Shown here: in pieces, positions 1,614-22,298 of the stretch
Layout: each line of letters starts with the position of its first letter
Numbering within the stretch: the first letter of the stretch is position 1
From: Minisyncoccota bacterium
Lineage (GTDB): Bacteria; Patescibacteriota; Minisyncoccia; Phycocordibacterales; UBA9973
Assembly (NCBI GenBank): GCA_017991915.1
Contig: JAGOPQ010000001.1
Location: 1-62,414 of the forward strand
Reading direction: 5' to 3'
Length of the DNA: 62,414 nt
Position numbers and translations under genes: made by a program
Notes under the pieces: generated by a model
The model's database searches: none
What the model saw: only the letters and a program-made list of their open reading frames with translations
What the model was told of the DNA's origin: nothing

Positions 1614-4600
1614 ATGATCAAGCGCTTTTTAATTGCAATAACTCTCTTTGTCCTCGTCGGACTATCTTTTACAAATCAAGCTTCGGCCCTGGGTGCGGGT
1701 TCAGGTAACACCACTACAAATGGTTGTACCTTAAATACTGCCTATCTTGGTCAAAATAATTTATATATTAGATTCAGTGCCAACTCTTACTGCGGAAGTA
1801 TTGAGGTTTTTGATTCTGAAGGTGCCACTCATGTAGCACATAGTGCTAGAAACATGTTTAATTCATACTCCGCTTCTTCCGAAGAAAATGGAGTAATATT
1901 TAATCCTTATTGGGATTCGGTGACTGTAGATATGGTAACCTTCACAATTCGCGCACATGATCCGCAGGACTGGTCTAGCTACTCAGAATCTAATGTTACC
2001 TGGGGAGGTGGACTTAACGCGAGTTGTGTTTTGACCAGCTTTGGATATAGTGTTTCAAGTCCTGGAGTCCCTAACAGTGTGACTTATAATTCTACGAACT
2101 ATACTCAAGGTGGTTTCGTATGTATACCAGTGTTTAATGGGACGCAATACCCTTCTCCTATTGCAAGTTACATAGTGGGTGGTGTAAATAGTTTAGTTGT
2201 TTGGGCAGTGCCGCCAGGTGGGTGGGTTAATGGTCCTGGATCTTTCGTTTCTGACTACGTATCTTTCAATTATCCGGGTGGAGGAAATGTGGGTGGTAGT
2301 GCTCCCGTTGTGACTCTCACCGCAAACCCTGTATCTGGTAGTGCTGGTTCAGTAAACCCAACTCTGACGTGGACAGTGGCCAACGGGGCTACGTCATGCG
2401 CAGCTTCTGGTGGCTGGTCTGGAAATAAAAGTACAGGGGGTGGAAGTGAGTCTACAGGAATTATTTATATTCAAGGAATAAAAACCTTTACTCTTGAGTG
2501 TGTAAATGCTTATGGGCAAGGATCCGATAATGCGACGGTGGATGTTGGGCCAGGTGGAGCATACAAGGATTTGATTGCAGATGTGCCAACTACAAGTGGA
2601 GCTGTCATAGTAAATGTGGCCAAAACTTTTACTTCAACCATTACCAACCAAGGTAATACATCTACCGTTTCAGGATTTACGAATTTATTTCAAGTATCAC
2701 AATCTTCTGATGGCTCAAATCCTATTGATTATCCAACGACAGTAATGTCGGGTTTAGCAGGAGGTGCTTCTGCTAATGCTTCTAAATCCATAACCTTTAC
2801 ATCCTTGGGAGCATGGTATATCCGTGCCTGTGCGGACAAGAGCGGTGCCTCAGATGCTAATGGTGTAATTGCCGAAATTGATGAAAATAATAACTGCAGT
2901 ATGAGTACACCTTGGACATTGGTGACTGTAACCACTCCAAATTCTCCTGATCTAGTAGCTTCCACTCCTACTCCAAACGGAGCTACAGTGGGTGTGGCGC
3001 AAACTTTTTCCTCAACAATCACAAATGCTGGAGCACTGACCACGGGCGGAGGGTTTACAAACTTGTTCCAAATTTCTCAATCCTCAACTGGAGCGAGTGG
3101 AGTTACAGATTACGCAGTTCCGGGAATGTCTACACTGGCTTCTGGGGGATTTGCTACTACTTCTAAATCCATAACTTTCCCATCTGCTGGAACTTGGTAT
3201 ATACGTGCCTGTGCTGACAAGAGTAACGCTTCTGACACCAATGGAGTTATCTCAGAATATTTAGAGGGCAACAACTGCAGCATGAGTACACCTTGGACTG
3301 CCGTTACTGTGACTGACCAACCTACACCAGTAGTCACCATCACTGCCAATCCACCATCTGGCGTAGTGAATGTAGTAAACCCAACATTGACTTGGAGTGC
3401 TACAAACAATCCTATTTCATGTACAGCATCTGAAGACTGGTCTGGTCCCAAGGGTGTTTCTGGAACCAATGTTTCTCAAGGGGTATCAACTATGATTAAA
3501 ACTTATAGATATACACTTTATTGTACAAATGCTAATGGAGATGGTGCACCGCAAACTGCAAATGTCACAGTAACTGGCGCAGGTGGTATTGATTTGACGG
3601 CCGGTGTGATTACTCCAACCACTGCGCTCGTGGGTGTTTCTACAACTTTTAACACAACCATTCAAAATATTGGATCAACAGCGACCGGTGCTGGATTTAC
3701 AAATTTATTTCAACGAGCCACTGCCGCAGACGGCACTGGATCATCTGATGTGGGTGTTACTTCTATTGGTAGCTCTTTGGCGGGAGGGGGAAGTGTTCAG
3801 ATTTCCAAAGCAAATGCCTTTGCTACGGCCGGTACTCATTACATGAGAGCTTGTGCGGATAAAGATAAAAATAATGGTGTTGGTACTATAAACGAAGGGG
3901 CGAATGAGGGTAACAACTGTGGTCCATGGACCGCCATTACTGTAGTTGCTCCCGGACCAGACCTTGTAGCAGCCGTTCCTACACTATTGGTGCAACCACA
4001 AGTTGGGGTATATTCTGGATTTAATTCTATTACAATAAACCAGGGAAATCAGAGCACTGTAAATAGTTTTCAAGTGAAGTTTGAAGTTGATAATAATGCA
4101 GACCATTCTGTATACGTACAAAATCTTGCCGGATATTCAGCAGCACTTGCAGGTAATAACGCCACAAGTTCTGTAAATTCTGGTAATTACGGTTTCCCGA
4201 CGGCTGGTACTTACTATGCACGTGCATGTGCAGATCAAAACGGTTTTGGTACTGGAGTAATATCTGAAACCGATGAAGGTAATAATTGTAGTACCTGGAT
4301 GTCTTTCCAAGTGGGTCCGACTGGTACCATAACTGCACCTCCTTGCGTCATCGCCGAAAATGCTTCTACTTGTAATTCTTCTGTGACCTGGAGCACCACA
4401 AATCCTATAACAACTTCAGTGGTAAAAAATTCTGCCAACACAACCACAGCGACTGCAAACTCTGGAACTCAGAGTATGGTGGTGAAATATCCTTCAGAAA
4501 CTTTTACCCTATACAATAACAGCGTATCTCTGGTCTCAGATGTAGCGCAGTCTAGTTGTGCGTCGGGAACTTCTTGGAATACTTCTAGTGGTATGTGTAA

Positions 4601-5556: not shown

Positions 5557-5560
5557 AAAC

Positions 5561-7264
5561 ATGAAAGCAGAAACTAAAAATTGCCAGAATTGTCAAAAAG
5601 AATTCTTGATCGAAGAAAGTGATTTTAATTTCTATGAAAAAATAAAAGTTCCACCACCGACATGGTGTGGAGAGTGCAGGTTTGTGCGCAGAATTTCTTC
5701 TACAAACGTTTGGACTCTCTTTTGGCGCAATTGTGATAAGTGCGAAAAACGCATGATATCTGTCTATCCCGAATCACAAAAAATCACCGTGTATTGTCCA
5801 ACTTGTTGGTGGGGAGATAGTTGGGATGGCACAGAATACGCCATGGACTATGATCCCAGCCGACCATTTTTAGCACAGGTGAAAGAGTTGTCTATGAAAA
5901 CTCCATACCCGGCAGTGGAGACCGAGCACCTAACTCTGAAAAATTCTGAATATACAAACGCCATCGCGTATTCCAAGAATTGTTTTATGGTTGTGTCCGC
6001 GGATTATTGTGAGTCAGTTTACTATTCTTCAATTTTAAATGGCATGAAGTGGAGTGCGGATTGTCTGCGGGGCTGGGAGTCAGAGCTGTGCTATGAGTCT
6101 ACTGGTTTTGCCAAAGGTTACAATGTTTTCTTTTCTGAAGAATTTGATAATTGTGTAGACGTTTGGTTTTCTAGGAATTGCCACAGCTCTTCCAATTGCA
6201 TTGGTTGTGTGAATTTAAGAGGTGCCAGCTATCAAATATTTAATGTGCAATATTCCAAGGAAGAATATAACCAAAAATTAAAAGAGTTTGGTTTTGATTC
6301 ATGGAGCAATTTACAAAAGTTTGAAAAAGTTACTAGAGAGTTTTGGCTGACCAAGCCTTATCGTGACTATCATGCCAATTCTTTTAATTTAAATGTTAGC
6401 GGAGAATTTGTGTATTATTCTAAAAATTCCAAAGAAGGGTATATCTTAAACTATGCTGAGAATTCTAATTGGTGCCAATTTATAACCGTAAACGGCATAA
6501 AAGACTGCGCGGATTATTCTGGCTGGGGCAACAACGCGGAGCTGGTGTATGAGTCTGCCAGTGTGGGGAATAATGTCAGTGATGTGAAATTTTCATGCTT
6601 TTGTTTTCCTGACGTAGTGGGAGTTGAATATTGTTTGTGGTGTATAGCGGGGAAGAATAATTTTGGTTGTGTTGGCTTGAAACGCAAGAGTTATAGTATT
6701 TTAAATAAACAATATTCCAAAGAAGAATATGAAAAATTAAAAAGTCAGATTATTTTAGATATGAAAAATAATCCATACATAGATGAAAAGGGGAAGGTTT
6801 GGGGGTATGGAGAATTTTTCAGACCTGGTTTTAGCAAGCATGACTACAATCATTCCACCGCGATGAAGTTTTTCCCCAAAACTAAAGAGCAGGCCATCAA
6901 GGAAGGTTATTCATGGAATGATGATGTAGCACCAACGGTGACATGTACGATAAAATCGGAATCATTGCCAGATATAATTGCAGATACGGATGATTCTATC
7001 TTGCAAGAAATCATAGAATGCATGTCTTGTACACGTGGATACAAGATAGTGTCTGGAGAATTGGAATTACTTCGCAAAATGAACCTACCTGTGCCCCATG
7101 AATGCCCAAAATGTAGAGAAAGCCGGAGATTCAGCAGGATGAATAGACCTGGTATGTACCACAGAAATTGTGCAAAATGCGAAGCCCCTATATATACACC
7201 ATATGCTCCGGAGCGTCCGGAGATAGTGTATTGCGCTAAGTGTTATCTGGCAGAGTTTGCCTAG
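5561..7264 (+). CDS. Cys-rich hypothetical protein with zinc-ribbon modules at both termini
   Basis: 567 aa with many CxxC pairs. The N- and C-terminal modules of about 80 aa are paralogous (CxxC...VP.P..CxxCR...RNCxKCE...VYCxxC). The centre has an internal duplication (C(I/F)GCV.L...Y.I.N.QYSKEEY). Confidence 0.6.
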   Translation: MKAETKNCQNCQKEFLIEESDFNFYEKIKVPPPTWCGECRFVRRISSTNVWTLFWRNCDKCEKRMISVYPESQKITVYCPTCWWGDSWDGTEYAMDYDPSRPFLAQVKELSMKTPYPAVETEHLTLKNSEYTNAIAYSKNCFMVVSADYCESVYYSSILNGMKWSADCLRGWESELCYESTGFAKGYNVFFSEEFDNCVDVWFSRNCHSSSNCIGCVNLRGASYQIFNVQYSKEEYNQKLKEFGFDSWSNLQKFEKVTREFWLTKPYRDYHANSFNLNVSGEFVYYSKNSKEGYILNYAENSNWCQFITVNGIKDCADYSGWGNNAELVYESASVGNNVSDVKFSCFCFPDVVGVEYCLWCIAGKNNFGCVGLKRKSYSILNKQYSKEEYEKLKSQIILDMKNNPYIDEKGKVWGYGEFFRPGFSKHDYNHSTAMKFFPKTKEQAIKEGYSWNDDVAPTVTCTIKSESLPDIIADTDDSILQEIIECMSCTRGYKIVSGELELLRKMNLPVPHECPKCRESRRFSRMNRPGMYHRNCAKCEAPIYTPYAPERPEIVYCAKCYLAEFA

Positions 7265-20110: not shown

Positions 20111-20131
20111 TTTTTTTGGTACAATGTGTTA

Positions 20132-20518
20132 ATGACAATATTAATATTTTTCGTGCTACTTTTTTCGGTGCTTGCTTTGGAGTTTATTTTTTCCAAAATT
20201 AAGATTAAAGGAAAATCGCATAAATCATATCATTTTACTTTTTCTAGGTATGTATTATATATGATGTTTTTGATTGTTTCAGTTGCTTTTATTACCTTTA
20301 AAGAGGGTACTCCACTTTTTATAACTATTTTAGTATTCTCTGTAATCGGACCATTTTTTGAATGGCTGGTAGGAATAAGTTACTCTAAAATTGTTGGGCG
20401 GAGATTGTGGACGTATCATCGTGGAACAATCCATGGTTATACTAGCTACCTAGCAATGCCACTTTGGGCATTTTGTGGTGCGATTTCTTGGATAATAATT
20501 AAATATTTAGTTGCATAA
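20132..20518 (+). CDS. Hypothetical small integral membrane protein
   Basis: Four hydrophobic helices. ATG 20132 lies 6 nt downstream of a TGGTACAAT extended -10. Confidence 0.55.
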   Translation: MTILIFFVLLFSVLALEFIFSKIKIKGKSHKSYHFTFSRYVLYMMFLIVSVAFITFKEGTPLFITILVFSVIGPFFEWLVGISYSKIVGRRLWTYHRGTIHGYTSYLAMPLWAFCGAISWIIIKYLVA

Positions 20519-20520
20519 CC

Positions 20521-20545
20521 AAAAATCCCCACGAAGGGGATTTTT
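20521..20545. terminator. Bidirectional intrinsic terminator between convergent genes
   Basis: AAAAATCCCC-ACGAA-GGGGATTTTT, flanked by an A-run and a T-run. Confidence 0.75.
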
Positions 20546-20567
20546 GGTTCTCTAATTCTTTTTAAAT

Positions 20568-20816
20568 TTATTTGGCTTTAATTAGTCCAGCTTTTAGGAG
20601 GGTAGCGTATACTCCGTTCTTCTTCATTGTACGCATACCAGAGGTTGAAACTTCAATGATTACAGTCTTACCAAGTTCAGGCACAAAAACACGCTTCTTT
20701 TGAAGATTTATGTTTTTTCGGACCTTTCCGGTTGGGTTGAATTTGGTCGCACGAGTTCTATTTGAATAGCCTCCGCCGACAATTGAACCTCCTTTTGTGA
20801 TTGCACATGTTTTCAT
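20568..20816 (-). CDS. rpmB: 50S ribosomal protein L28
   Basis: MKTCAITKG...NRTRATKFNP...NLQKKRV pattern of L28. The ATG at 20816 was chosen. Confidence 0.88.
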   Translation of the reverse strand: MKTCAITKGGSIVGGGYSNRTRATKFNPTGKVRKNINLQKKRVFVPELGKTVIIEVSTSGMRTMKKNGVYATLLKAGLIKAK

Positions 20817-20866
20817 TGGAGTTATGCTAACATAATATATAGACAAAGGCAAGAATTTGTATGAGT

Positions 20867-21140
20867 CCCGTACGAAATCCCATATGTTTTATACTTACAT
20901 ATTAAAAAGTAAAAAAGATGGTAAACTGTATACAGGATATACGAATAATTTACGGAAACGCTTTTCTGAACACAATTCTGGCAAGTCTACGTATACAAAA
21001 GGTAGGGGTCCATATGAGTTAATTTATTATGAAGCGTGTCTTGAGGAACAAGATGCGCGGTCGAGAGAAGTTTATTTTAAATCGGGGCGAGGTAAGCGTT
21101 TTATTAAATCACGCTTAAAGCGTTTCCTATTTCGTACGGG
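20867..21140 (+). mobile_element. Miniature cassette carrying a GIY-YIG nuclease gene, with 12-bp perfect terminal inverted repeats and a flanking 6-bp direct repeat
   Basis: CCCGTACGAAAT at 20867-20878 and ATTTCGTACGGG at 21129-21140. ATGAGT occurs at 20861-20866 and at 21141-21146. Confidence 0.6.
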
Positions 21141-21144
21141 ATGA
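20884..21144 (+). CDS. GIY-YIG nuclease family protein (UPF0213/YhbQ-like)
   Basis: FYTYIL...LYTGYTNNL..R..EHN motif. The stop TGA overlaps the ATG of the next gene. Confidence 0.88.
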   Translation: MFYTYILKSKKDGKLYTGYTNNLRKRFSEHNSGKSTYTKGRGPYELIYYEACLEEQDARSREVYFKSGRGKRFIKSRLKRFLFRTG

Positions 21145-21773
21145 GTGCAATAGATACAATTTTTTACCTGCTAATACTTTTGATGTCGGTGGTTATCCAC
21201 GAAGTGGCACACGGCTTTATGGCTGAGCAGTTTGGAGACGATACCGCTCGTGATGCTGGGCGTCTGACTTTGAATCCCATCAAGCACATTGACCCATTTG
21301 GTTCAATTATTTTGCCGGCGTTGCTATTTTTCTCTACCGCAGCCACTGGCCACCCATTTGTTTTTGGTTGGGCCAAGCCAGTGCCATACAATCCAAATAA
21401 TTTGAGTAATCGCAAGTGGGGGACTATCGCTGTAGCTGCGGCTGGAGTGTTGGCGAATATTTTTATTGCAGTTATCTTTGGCATATTGATTCGTTTGTCT
21501 GTGGGCTACCCGGTTTCAGATAGTTTTTATTTCGTAACTTCCACTATCGTGTTGGTGAACTTAGCTTTGGCTATATTCAACCTCGTGCCCATACCACCAC
21601 TTGATGGATCCAAGATTCTTTTCTCACTCTTGCCAGCTTCTTGGTACGAAGTCATGGATTTCATTGAGCGCTATGGTTTTGTTTTGTTGCTTGTATTTAT
21701 CTTTTATTTTTCTGACATTTTGTACCCAATTCTGGCTTATTCTTTTAGCCTGGTCACAGGACTTGCGTTTTAA
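21141..21773 (+). CDS. Site-2 protease family (peptidase M50) membrane metalloprotease
   Basis: HEVAHG zinc motif and NLVPIPPLDGSK motif. Confidence 0.88.
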   Translation: MSAIDTIFYLLILLMSVVIHEVAHGFMAEQFGDDTARDAGRLTLNPIKHIDPFGSIILPALLFFSTAATGHPFVFGWAKPVPYNPNNLSNRKWGTIAVAAAGVLANIFIAVIFGILIRLSVGYPVSDSFYFVTSTIVLVNLALAIFNLVPIPPLDGSKILFSLLPASWYEVMDFIERYGFVLLLVFIFYFSDILYPILAYSFSLVTGLAF

Positions 21774-21827
21774 CTTCATAAATAGTATATTATCGCCATA
21801 GCTCGATGGGGCTATTTTAGTTATTAG

Positions 21828-21854
21828 CGTCGCGCCGAACGGACTTACGCGACG
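21828..21854 (+). promoter_or_regulatory. GC-rich hairpin in the rpsL 5' leader
   Basis: CGTCGCG-13 nt loop-CGCGACG, 15 nt upstream of the rpsL ATG. Confidence 0.35.
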
Positions 21855-21869
21855 TGATTTGCAAAATCA

Positions 21870-22298
21870 ATGCCTACAATCAATCAATTAATAAAGAAAA
21901 ACCGAACCAAAGTCAGCCGAAAATCAAAGACGGTGGCTTTAGCGCGTGGATTCAATGTCCTAAAGAACCGACCAGTATTTTTCCCAGCTCCATTCAAGAG
22001 AGGAGTTTGCACAAAAGTTACAACCACTACCCCAAAGAAGCCTAACTCTGCGCTTCGAAAAATTGCCCGCGTAAGATTAACCAACGGAATGGAAGTAACT
22101 GCATATATCCCAGGAGAAGGACACAATCTACAAGAACACTCAGTGGTTATGCTACGAGGAGGACGCGTGAAGGACTTGATCGGAGTTCGATATCACATAG
22201 TTCGTGGAGTGCTCGATACTCAAGGAGTAGAGAAGCGCCGACAAGGACGATCATTATACGGTAACAAGAAGCCAAGAACAGATGCGAAGAAAAGTTAA
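21870..22298 (+). CDS. rpsL: 30S ribosomal protein S12
   Basis: PTINQLI...KKPNSALRK motif. Confidence 0.98.

Follow-up and report, generated by a model that had tools for sequence, protein, structure and literature searches.

A 276-bp candidate mobile element with a GIY-YIG nuclease gene at a protease start codon of a patescibacterial genome

In a 62,414-nt stretch of a Minisyncoccota bacterium (Patescibacteriota; contig JAGOPQ010000001.1 of assembly GCA_017991915.1, positions 1 to 62,414; from here on the window), a gene for an 86-amino-acid (aa) GIY-YIG nuclease ends on the very start codon of an M50 metalloprotease gene and is enclosed between the two arms of a perfect inverted repeat. How does such a gene come to be in this place, and is it the nuclease itself that brings it there? 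A previous sequence-only reading of the locus had suggested a minimal mobile unit with the nuclease as its only gene, and this suggestion is supported by the anatomy of the whole family, by empty sites in relatives and by the presence of the unit at different sites. From the comparison of sequences we consider it fairly probable that the segment is a copy of a family of miniature mobile elements of Patescibacteria, and that it is autonomous and moved by its own hairpin-recognising single-stranded DNA (ssDNA) nuclease.

The insert and its empty site

The element comprises 276 bp (positions 20866-21141) and is located at the start codon of the M50 protease gene. The sequence CCCGTACGAAAT at 20867-20878 and its exact reverse complement ATTTCGTACGGG at 21129-21140 can be read directly, and had been described as the perfect 12-bp terminal repeats of a 274-bp cassette. 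The repeat is indeed present but both lengths have to be corrected, as the pairing extends to T20866 and A21141. This gives a perfect inverted repeat of 13 bp, with a left arm TCCCGTACGAAAT at 20866-20878 and a right arm ATTTCGTACGGGA at 21129-21141 (both described here on the forward strand), the latter within coding sequence. The core of the repeat, CGTACG, is a palindrome by itself. The hexamer ATGAGT appears at both ends, as had been stated (20861-20866 and 21141-21146), although not completely outside of the repeat, each 13-bp arm overlapping the hexamer by one base. Since the terminal bases overlap the target, the boundary is ambiguous by one base per side and the duplication can be taken as TGAG, ATGAG or ATGAGT. 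Of the two copies of the duplicated target, the left one (ATGAG and the T that also belongs to the repeat) was once the start codon of the M50 gene, while the right one is now the functional start, as indicated by the sequence and by the empty-site allele.

The gene between the arms (ATG at 20884 to 21144, plus strand) codes for a single-domain protein of the GIY-YIG type (Pfam PF01541) that is UPF0213/Ssn-like. Its stop codon TGA (21142-21144) overlaps the M50 start ATG (21141-21143), the stop being supplied by the ATGA of the host gene, and its final five codons (LFRTG) are the right arm of the repeat. A direct reading of the sequence therefore bears out the earlier observation that the right hexamer provides the M50 start and contains the stop of the nuclease. 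Translation of the M50 gene is probably coupled to the nuclease open reading frame (ORF) by this stop/start overlap (ATGA).

A way to find out whether the segment was inserted is to look at the same locus in relatives. The three closest M50 homologues (86-87% identical) are found in syntenic regions (DEAD helicase, rpmB, M50, rpsL, rpsG, fusA) with no gene between rpmB and M50. The empty-site allele L081 (sampled loci are designated L and protein relatives P), in which the ribosomal proteins L28 and S12 are 100% and 99% identical to those of the window, has a single ATGAGTGCAA and reads ...GAATTTATATGAGTGCAACCGATACAATTTTTTAT, that is, the window minus the element and minus one copy of the duplication. 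It had been predicted that removing the cassette and one hexamer would rebuild the protease start at 44 nt from that of rpmB, and L081 reads exactly so. In the window 44 nt separate the left ATG from the rpmB start (CAT at 20814-20816, minus strand), and the original M50 start lay in this intergenic region. The orthologous loci lacking the insert thus match the predicted site, and the existence of such alleles in relatives excludes a conserved regulatory hairpin, the explanation under which no empty alleles would be found.

The same M50 start codon is occupied in another lineage (L003), where a 35%-GC element with the duplication ATGCAA lies in a 51%-GC genome. The two elements are 84% identical at the nucleotide level, whereas the M50 genes are only 64% identical (65% at the protein level), and therefore the element of L003 must have arrived separately, and recently in relation to the base composition of its host. 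The nearest protein relatives retrieved (P0002, P0003 and P0012, 88-91% identical) are located in front of other genes, and two genomes that are 90% identical in the neighbouring syntenic DNA carry, at different start codons, copies 96% identical to each other. With copies at unrelated sites and empty-site alleles, as in transposons with terminal inverted repeats (TIRs), and with horizontal arrival, these comparisons leave little doubt that the unit is mobile.

Regarding the surroundings, the host target gene (21141-21773, plus strand) is an intact site-2/M50 metalloprotease of 210 aa (Pfam PF02163), of which the homologues mentioned above carry no insert. The divergent rpmB gene (ribosomal protein L28, Pfam PF00830) occupies 20568-20816 on the minus strand and is syntenic in L003 and L081-L083. 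The old M50 ATG opens, by translation, an out-of-frame mini-ORF of 14 codons (20861-20905, plus strand). An Rfam scan of 20300-21900 gave nothing relevant and a promoter scan of the locus no sigma-70-type match. Between rpmB and a convergent ORF (20126-20518) there is a hairpin with flanking A and T runs (20494-20572, AAAAATCCCCACGAAGGGGATTTTT) that resembles a bidirectional intrinsic terminator. A small hairpin, ACGCTTAAAGCGT, with TTCCTATTTC after it (21111-21133) is located at the inner side of the right arm and was flagged as terminator-like. The GCGT(TT)CCTATTT stretch is retained in the miniature elements too and may be a subterminal recognition feature.

Complementary arms and duplicated start codons across the family

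To place the window among its relatives, 80 loci from genomes and 80 from metagenomes were sampled and 157 nuclease copies were scored for the complementarity between the sequence just upstream of the nuclease ATG and that around its stop (arm score). As controls we used 718 positions of the same geometry in related loci, displaced by 0.6-1.5 kb. Inverted repeats had been expected at the other copies if the unit was mobile, and they are there: an arm score of at least 10 was found in 59% of the 157 copies and in 37 of the 43 with at least 70% protein identity, which carry a complementary arm in the same position, against 1.5% of the controls (a score of at least 12 appeared in 0.3% of the controls, and an adjacent direct repeat of at least 5 in 1.1%). 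In 38 aligned elements 94.4% of the arm cells were paired and 59 cells had changed on both sides. This degree of pairing was not reached in any of 500 shuffles, and partners slid by 1-3 columns paired only in 29-43%. The arms of the window, left and right, are delimited by this covariation as well as by their sequence.

The arms differ even between close protein relatives and still remain perfect (TACGAAAT, TACAAAAT, TATGAAAT, TTAGAGAT, TTACCCCT). Arm types include TCCCGTACGAAAT, ..TACAAAAT, TCACGTATGAAAT, TCCCGTTAGAGAT and TCCCGTTACCCCT, with the partner arm altered to match each time, and the same is true for ACCCTGTTAAATAA and CCCAGTAGTGAAATTTTGA of more distant subfamilies. Only the outer part, (A)TCCCG...CGGGA(T), is near-fixed, the inner bases being variable but complementary. 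Autonomous copies measure ~275-281 bp and have arms of 13-15 nt. By the arm scores and the covariation, TIRs are a conserved trait across copies. The last codons of the protein vary along with the arm (LFRTG, LSLTG, LGVTG), and therefore selection acts on complementarity and not on those residues. That arms vary between close relatives and yet remain complementary fits a pairing of arm with arm.

Had only the window been available, a chance repeat and hexamer around an ordinary, vertically inherited gene would have been difficult to dismiss. The pair at 20866-20878 and 21129-21141 is the only perfect inverted repeat of at least 13 bp with a loop of 40-450 nt in these 62 kb, but by our own estimate ~0.6 repeats of 13 bp with such a loop are expected in a 62-kb sequence of 40% GC, and a dozen 11-mers were seen. 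This explanation is refuted by the comparative statistics (arms, covariation, duplications and downstream ORFs) together with the empty sites, and what probability it retains is negligible.

Two other groups with paired arms came out of the sampling. One is a second subfamily with arms ACCCTGTTAAATAA / TTATTTAACAGGGT (L034, L035, L039, L041, L133-L136, L150, L156, L157), in which the ORF is closed by a stop within the element (TGA or TAA) and the AT|G of the host gene comes immediately after it. No left copy of the ATG was seen in it, and its junction rule seems unlike that of the window family. The other consists of GIY-YIG homologues bracketed by complementary arms in metagenome-assembled genomes (MAGs) of Akkermansia (L043, ~1903-2145) and Bacteroidales (L033, ~3001-3246), the arm pairs being CAGATTCACCCCATGAGATA / TATCTCACGGGGTGAACCTG and ACCCTGTGTAATA / TATTACACAGGGT. 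The split-stem layout may thus be wider than one phylum.

The location at start codons is a property of the whole family, something that could not be appreciated from a single window. Among 60 distinct TCCCG-type elements 54 end in A|TG, and in 45 of 48 non-redundant junctions the bases that follow the terminal A are repeated directly before the left arm, and in 39 of these 45 they are preceded by an A. The duplication differs from site to site, as a mobile unit would have it: ATGAC (L001), the already mentioned ATGCAA (L003), ATGGA (L004), ATGAA (many), ATGTAT (L010, L016) and others. The fixed length of 6 bp proposed before does not stand, since what is duplicated is the start codon plus 1-3 bases, most commonly ATGNN (28 of 48). 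An ORF of 60 codons or more begins at the terminal ATG in 43 of the 48 junctions, compared with 20% of random ATGA sites, and three of the five exceptions correspond to a tandem element or a contig end. The downstream genes are diverse (M50, SMC, topoisomerase I TopA, MurG, MurB, FtsX-like, glycosyltransferases and others) and the orientation relative to the host gene is always the same.

The nuclease ORF has no internal stop. It is closed by TGA when the second codon of the host gene begins with A; when it does not, the ORF reads on, giving rise to C-terminal extensions (WMKQ, CKQ, WNI). At the other end, the old start codon falls in the three frames relative to the nuclease ATG 14, 13 and 7 times, in-frame cases being no commoner than by chance, and thus a fusion of the old start with the nuclease, although translatable in some copies (L001, L004, L122), is not the rule.

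Target sites are also enriched for A at +4 (73% vs 54%) and +5 (80% vs 48%) and for G at -2 and -3. Along these lines, none of 45 reconstructed target sites (L001-L163) has a Shine-Dalgarno-like motif (vs 9%), and a TAnnnT (-10-like) box 5-8 nt upstream of the ATG is present in 40% of the targets against 25% of control starts (p=0.03). Many of the targets may be leaderless genes, in which case the insertion would lie 3-5 nt downstream of the transcription start.

These features also bear on a role of the arms at the RNA level. The arms would pair in the mRNA and loop out the insert, bringing the original initiation signals close to the regenerated AUG, or would make an RNase III site. Such an adaptation, which would render the insertion harmless, could coexist with a mobile element as an add-on. 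The absence of Shine-Dalgarno motifs and the -10-like boxes of the targets speak for it, as do the minimum free energy and centroid folds of 20846-21160, both of which close the element with the 13-bp stem (z=-4.1), and the fact that miniatures at start codons must still permit translation of the host gene. However, mismatches in the arms show no excess of G.U on the sense strand (10 G.T, 20 A.C and 16 other), Ssn enzymes do not bind RNA (PMC11893778), and in copies with the nuclease the stop/start overlap already accounts for the translation of the host gene. Pairing in the mRNA would besides leave the duplications, the miniatures and the spread to new sites unexplained. We regard this role as improbable.

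Two observations on the target sites stand somewhat apart. In L090 (1974-2266) and L092 (399-693) the two flanks disagree, with GTG on the left and ATG on the right (GTGGA/ATGGA and GTGA/ATGA, respectively). This hints at a terminal A borne by the element, which would convert a GTG start into ATG, although L092 is not at a gene start; alternatively, a redundant upstream start may have mutated. On the other hand, in the case of more distant GIY-YIG copies (50-63% identity) a tRNA gene (Ile, Val, Phe or Thr) follows 8-14 nt after the end, specifically in L027 1030-1360, L036 3001-3321, L046 3001-3315, L051 3001-3319, L158 156-470 and L123 1184-1514. The 5' edge of tRNA genes may thus be to a sister subfamily what start codons are to this one.

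The same loci contain ORF-less segments of 100-160 nt with the same termini, located at start codons with ATGA, ATGAA or ATGGA duplicated. Either DNA strand can carry these miniature copies, but with respect to the host gene they always point the same way. In L006 (3259-3380) the first letters of the miniature, ATGTTTTACGCTTATATAATGAAAAG, are what is left of the N-terminal MFYTYILKS of the ORF, and therefore at least some miniatures are deletion derivatives. A filled/empty pair is also available, since L084 and L085 are versions of a single locus (97% identity, with the nuclease element the same in both) and differ by a 118-nt miniature between that element and the host ATG. Tandem elements are separated by exactly TGA or TAA (L008, L009, L084, L095, L096), which is what is expected if the second element enters the regenerated ATGA.

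In these tandems the nuclease element is followed by the miniature (~3250-3375 or 2250-2375 in L008, L009, L095 and L096; 1979-2379 in L084), and in three of them the upstream junction is ATAA and not ATGA. In the copies of P0003 (L285-L290) the element has on one side a hicA toxin gene, which in L285 and L286 belongs to a HicAB pair, and on the other, in the case of L287, an atpI-like gene. An extra ATGA at their right junction (CGGGATGAATGAC) could have been left by a previous round of insertion and excision.

With the derivatives at hand, the possibility of a free-standing GIY-YIG homing endonuclease (like T4 Seg or Mob) can be weighed. It would have spread by double-strand-break repair, with the repeats as an incidental feature. 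The protein belongs to the right superfamily, its gene is intergenic between conserved genes, and M50 and SMC are each occupied in two lineages. Nonetheless, a protein of 86 aa with no DNA-binding domain is unlike such enzymes, near-identical copies have unrelated flanks, the M50 flanks of the window and L003 (64% identical) are too dissimilar for repair-mediated homing, and neither the family-wide duplications and covarying arms nor the ORF-less miniatures would be expected. Homing appears very improbable. Taken together, the sequence comparisons reveal a large and previously undescribed family of elements in Patescibacteria, with autonomous and miniature members.

The nuclease and the movement of the element

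The window ORF matches Pfam PF01541 over residues 1-68 with 61.5 bits (cut-off 22.6, E=1e-16), and the 86-aa protein has no second domain or DNA-binding domain. Residues Y5, Y16, R26, H30 and E62, which cover the catalytic tyrosines of the GIY and YIG motifs, a conserved arginine and the metal-binding glutamate, are invariant in 37 homologues. A profile search of solved structures in the PDB retrieved 1ZG2 (UPF0213, BH0048; E=8.7e-12), 1YWL (EF2693; E=1.3e-5) and SLX1 (E=2e-3). The clustered protein database contains over 1,400 relatives, many of them 75-91% identical and almost all of 86 aa, coming from Parcubacteria/Paceibacterota-type genomes, while phage and plasmid collections gave only distant UPF0213-type matches and no vehicle. 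The C-terminus RFLFRTG, encoded in the right arm (TTT CGT ACG GGA), is near-invariant among homologues. Over-called starts of homologues read 'PVRN', which is the left arm translated, and N-terminal extensions through this arm appear for example in P0008, P0029 and P0032. Start-codon calls of host genes beside such inserts may run a similar risk of error. The median pairwise ratio of nonsynonymous to synonymous substitution rates (dN/dS) is 0.10 (156 pairs), a value indicating that the nuclease is under purifying selection and kept functional.

The closest functional precedent is SsnA of Neisseria meningitidis, a 94-aa single-domain GIY-YIG ssDNA endonuclease of the Ssn family (cd10448; Chenal et al. 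2025, Nat Commun, PMC11893778). SsnA binds the hairpin CGTCAT-TCCCGCG-MAV-GCGGGA-ATCYRG only as ssDNA and cuts a few nucleotides upstream (5') of it. The loop is dispensable and any loop is tolerated, and the stem may even be formed by two separate oligonucleotides. Mutation of its active-site residues Y6/Y17/E64 abolishes cleavage (PMC11893778); they correspond to Y5/Y16/E62 in the window protein. A canonical unit of this kind, composed of the hairpin motif (SRM), a 96-aa ORF and an inverted SRM, was found in a scan of viral contigs (L200), and its SsnA-like ORF is homologous to the window family (hhalign probability 96%, 34% identity over 68 aa).

With this precedent, the movement of the element could be envisaged as follows. 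When the DNA becomes single-stranded, for example during replication or uptake, the arms would pair as a stem with the element as its loop. The simplest reason for the freedom of the inner arm to vary as long as it remains complementary would be precisely this pairing in ssDNA. The nuclease would recognise the stem and the adjacent flank containing TCA/ATG and cut at the element boundaries. Cutting would start the excision, or the copying into a new ATG-A site, and host enzymes would do the joining. The ORF-less derivatives of 100-160 nt would be moved in trans. A requirement for the flank would account for the choice of (A/G)TGA sites and for the presence of the motif on either side of the inserted element, by analogy with the target tetranucleotide of IS200/IS605. 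The host gene keeps a start codon and is probably translated by termination-reinitiation. We infer here both the role of the nuclease as mobilising enzyme and its single-stranded substrate, and leave the joining of the ends to the host. A duplication of variable length (3-5 bp) fits a process less rigid than DDE transposition. Selection probably sharpens the start-codon pattern, because at these positions the design spares the host gene and gives the nuclease a promoter, by means of the regenerated ATG and the ATGA overlap.

The unit could also be mobile with the nuclease as a mere passenger. Another transposase, host recombination or replication slippage would then move any DNA bounded by TCCCG, and the enzyme would serve to restrict incoming ssDNA during natural transformation (as Neisseria SsnA), or in addiction or defence. 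The only biological role demonstrated for SsnA is, in fact, the modulation of transformation (PMC11893778). Miniatures can have arm types unlike those of the neighbouring GIY-YIG copy (L110, L099), and a variable duplication length would suit microhomology or slippage; it is also established that GIY-YIG enzymes have no strand-transfer chemistry. Against this, the units of autonomous size contain the nuclease as their sole ORF, and there is no further gene that regularly accompanies them. The right arm is made up of the last codons of the nuclease, whose stop is in turn borrowed from the target, hence gene and ends form one integrated design, conserved at 52-100% protein identity. Furthermore, the enzyme family is known to recognise the same TCCCG stem (PMC11893778). 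Both the passenger status, which is the main alternative, and the roles it would entail seem to us rather unlikely.

Several observations weigh against an autonomous element moved by its own nuclease, and they have to be set out together. All the support is comparative. To our knowledge, GIY-YIG nucleases hydrolyse DNA, are not known to join it and lack strand-transfer chemistry, so that ligation or replication by the host must be assumed. The duplication varies in length (2:4, 3:10, 4:28 and 5:3 cases, counted in the T...A frame), unlike in classical staggered-cut transposition. A few insertions are off gene starts, such as L092, in an apparent extended -10 box, and L284, with ATAA flanks, and part of the start-codon pattern may thus reflect selection and not targeting. 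In the 62-kb window the element is a single copy, with no second occurrence of the gene or of its termini, and most copies of the family differ by dS of at least 0.2, which leaves activity in this particular genome unproven. The similarity to Ssn has limits too. Neither arm is a local hairpin, and the SRM consensus (HGTCWY-N0-2-YYVSBRH-N0-5-WNVSBRG-N0-2-RNCYNB) mostly fails, its first half matching in full at 2 of 48 right ends and at none of the 48 left ends (without the leading HG, the half pattern is found at 17 of 48 right ends). The window protein is nearer to UPF0213 (BH0048) in sequence than to the SsnA-like ORF, and scores better against UPF0213 structures than the L200 ORF does. Finally, altering the sequence of the stem while keeping its structure abolished SsnA activity (PMC11893778), and hence the free variation of the inner arm here is not simply predicted from SsnA.

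Going one step further, no autonomous transposable element known may be smaller than these, with ~276 bp and a protein of 86 aa. They would be moved by a new class of prokaryotic transposase, of GIY-YIG/Ssn type, that reads its own two ends in ssDNA only when these are paired as a stem, and would be directed to start codons, or to positions just 5' of tRNA genes in a sister subfamily, the start of the host being regenerated and its translation coupled to the nuclease. We put this forward as a tentative proposal that may well prove wrong in some of its parts. If the nuclease drives mobility, it would be a kind of transposase distinct from the DDE, HUH, serine and tyrosine enzymes, and the minimum size of an autonomous mobile element would have to be lowered. 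The question left by the Ssn paper (PMC11893778), what the widespread hairpin-specific ssDNA nucleases and their repeats are for, would be answered as well, at least in Patescibacteria, where they would be active selfish elements. The design is a way of inserting on a start codon without killing the gene: the start is duplicated, the stop is borrowed, and stop and start overlap. Thousands of annotations as 'GIY-YIG nuclease family protein' in genomes of candidate phyla probably correspond to mobile elements, and the diverse pairs of arm and enzyme are candidates for programmable ssDNA cutters.

Comparison with known systems

The footprint seen here was considered before as not established for small GIY-YIG genes. 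This has to be qualified, as Ssn homologue genes flanked by hairpin motifs have been described, with a layout 'identical to' that of insertion sequences ('IS-like'), although mobility, duplications, empty sites and an association with start codons were not reported (PMC11893778). Full-text literature searches gave no previous description of a GIY-YIG transposon or transposase, of a miniature inverted-repeat transposable element (MITE) in bacteria of the candidate phyla radiation (CPR), or of an element that duplicates start codons.

The likeness to Ssn units is considerable. Both have a single-domain GIY-YIG protein of ~90 aa with the same catalytic Tyr/Tyr/Glu, a gene bracketed by inverted copies of a motif with the stem TCCCGC/GCGGGA and adjacent GTCAT/ATGAC, and many ORF-less copies of the motif. 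The SRM-likeness of the window family is limited to the outer stem TCCCG/CGGGA and the adjacent TCA(T)/ATGA; at the right end the bottom strand reads TTCA|TCCCG, with C and A invariant. However, in the window family each flank is half of a stem and the halves pair across the gene, the inner stem varies freely, the right arm is coding and the stop is borrowed from the target. The location at start codons with duplication, the empty sites and the horizontal arrival are further differences. We therefore describe the window family as Ssn-like in its predicted way of working and make no assignment to cd10448.

Canonical SRM hairpins (GTCATTCCCGC...GCGGGAATC) were also observed in Patescibacteria loci (L010 ~5560-5775, L017 5994-6150 and L036 5081-5100), not at start codons. 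The set includes a 157-nt element bounded by GTCATTCCCGCGCAGG / CCTGCGCGGGAATGAC, and the L017 interval is the same region as L103 3192-3348 (reversed). The Ssn-related hairpins that we know of had so far been described mainly from Pseudomonadati.

Among solved structures the best sequence matches are the uncharacterised UPF0213/YhbQ-YazA proteins (1ZG2 BH0048, 1YWL EF2693) and SLX1, of the same size and single domain. The former proteins, however, have no assigned mobility or flanking repeats, and SLX1, a structure-specific nuclease, is the partner of SLX4 in the repair of eukaryotes. The T4 Seg/Mob enzymes resemble the window family in being GIY-YIG genes that behave as selfish inserts between conserved genes, but they possess DNA-binding domains, spread by break repair between homologous genomes, and have no inverted repeats, duplications or miniatures. 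Integron gene cassettes have a single imperfect-palindrome attC at the 3' end only and form arrays at attI next to an integrase. In the present case there is an arm on each side of the ORF, the insertions are dispersed over start codons and lack a neighbouring integrase, and an integron cassette was rejected.

Classical insertion sequences (ISs) with TIRs and MITEs (IS630/Tc1-mariner with its TA duplication, the Correia elements of Neisseria) share with the window family the TIRs, a short target duplication and a target motif, as well as autonomous and miniature members and empty and filled alleles. They differ in that the only ORF of the window family has a GIY-YIG domain, with none of the recognised transposase classes (DDE, DEDD, HUH, serine or tyrosine) represented. 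Its duplication is also of variable length, its arms covary as if pairing, and its position and orientation at start codons are precise. The remaining resemblance is to IS200/IS605 and REP/RAYT, which are likewise very small, use the secondary structure of ssDNA (as proposed here) and have abundant ORF-less hairpin derivatives; IS200/IS605 elements also insert next to a short specific motif that later serves as cleavage flank. Here again the enzyme sets them apart, a HUH Y1 transposase with a covalent intermediate in IS200/IS605 versus a GIY-YIG hydrolase in the window family. The ends differ as well: IS200/IS605 elements have subterminal hairpins with no terminal inverted repeats or target duplication and measure at least 600-700 bp, whereas the whole unit described here, arms included, takes up ~276 bp.

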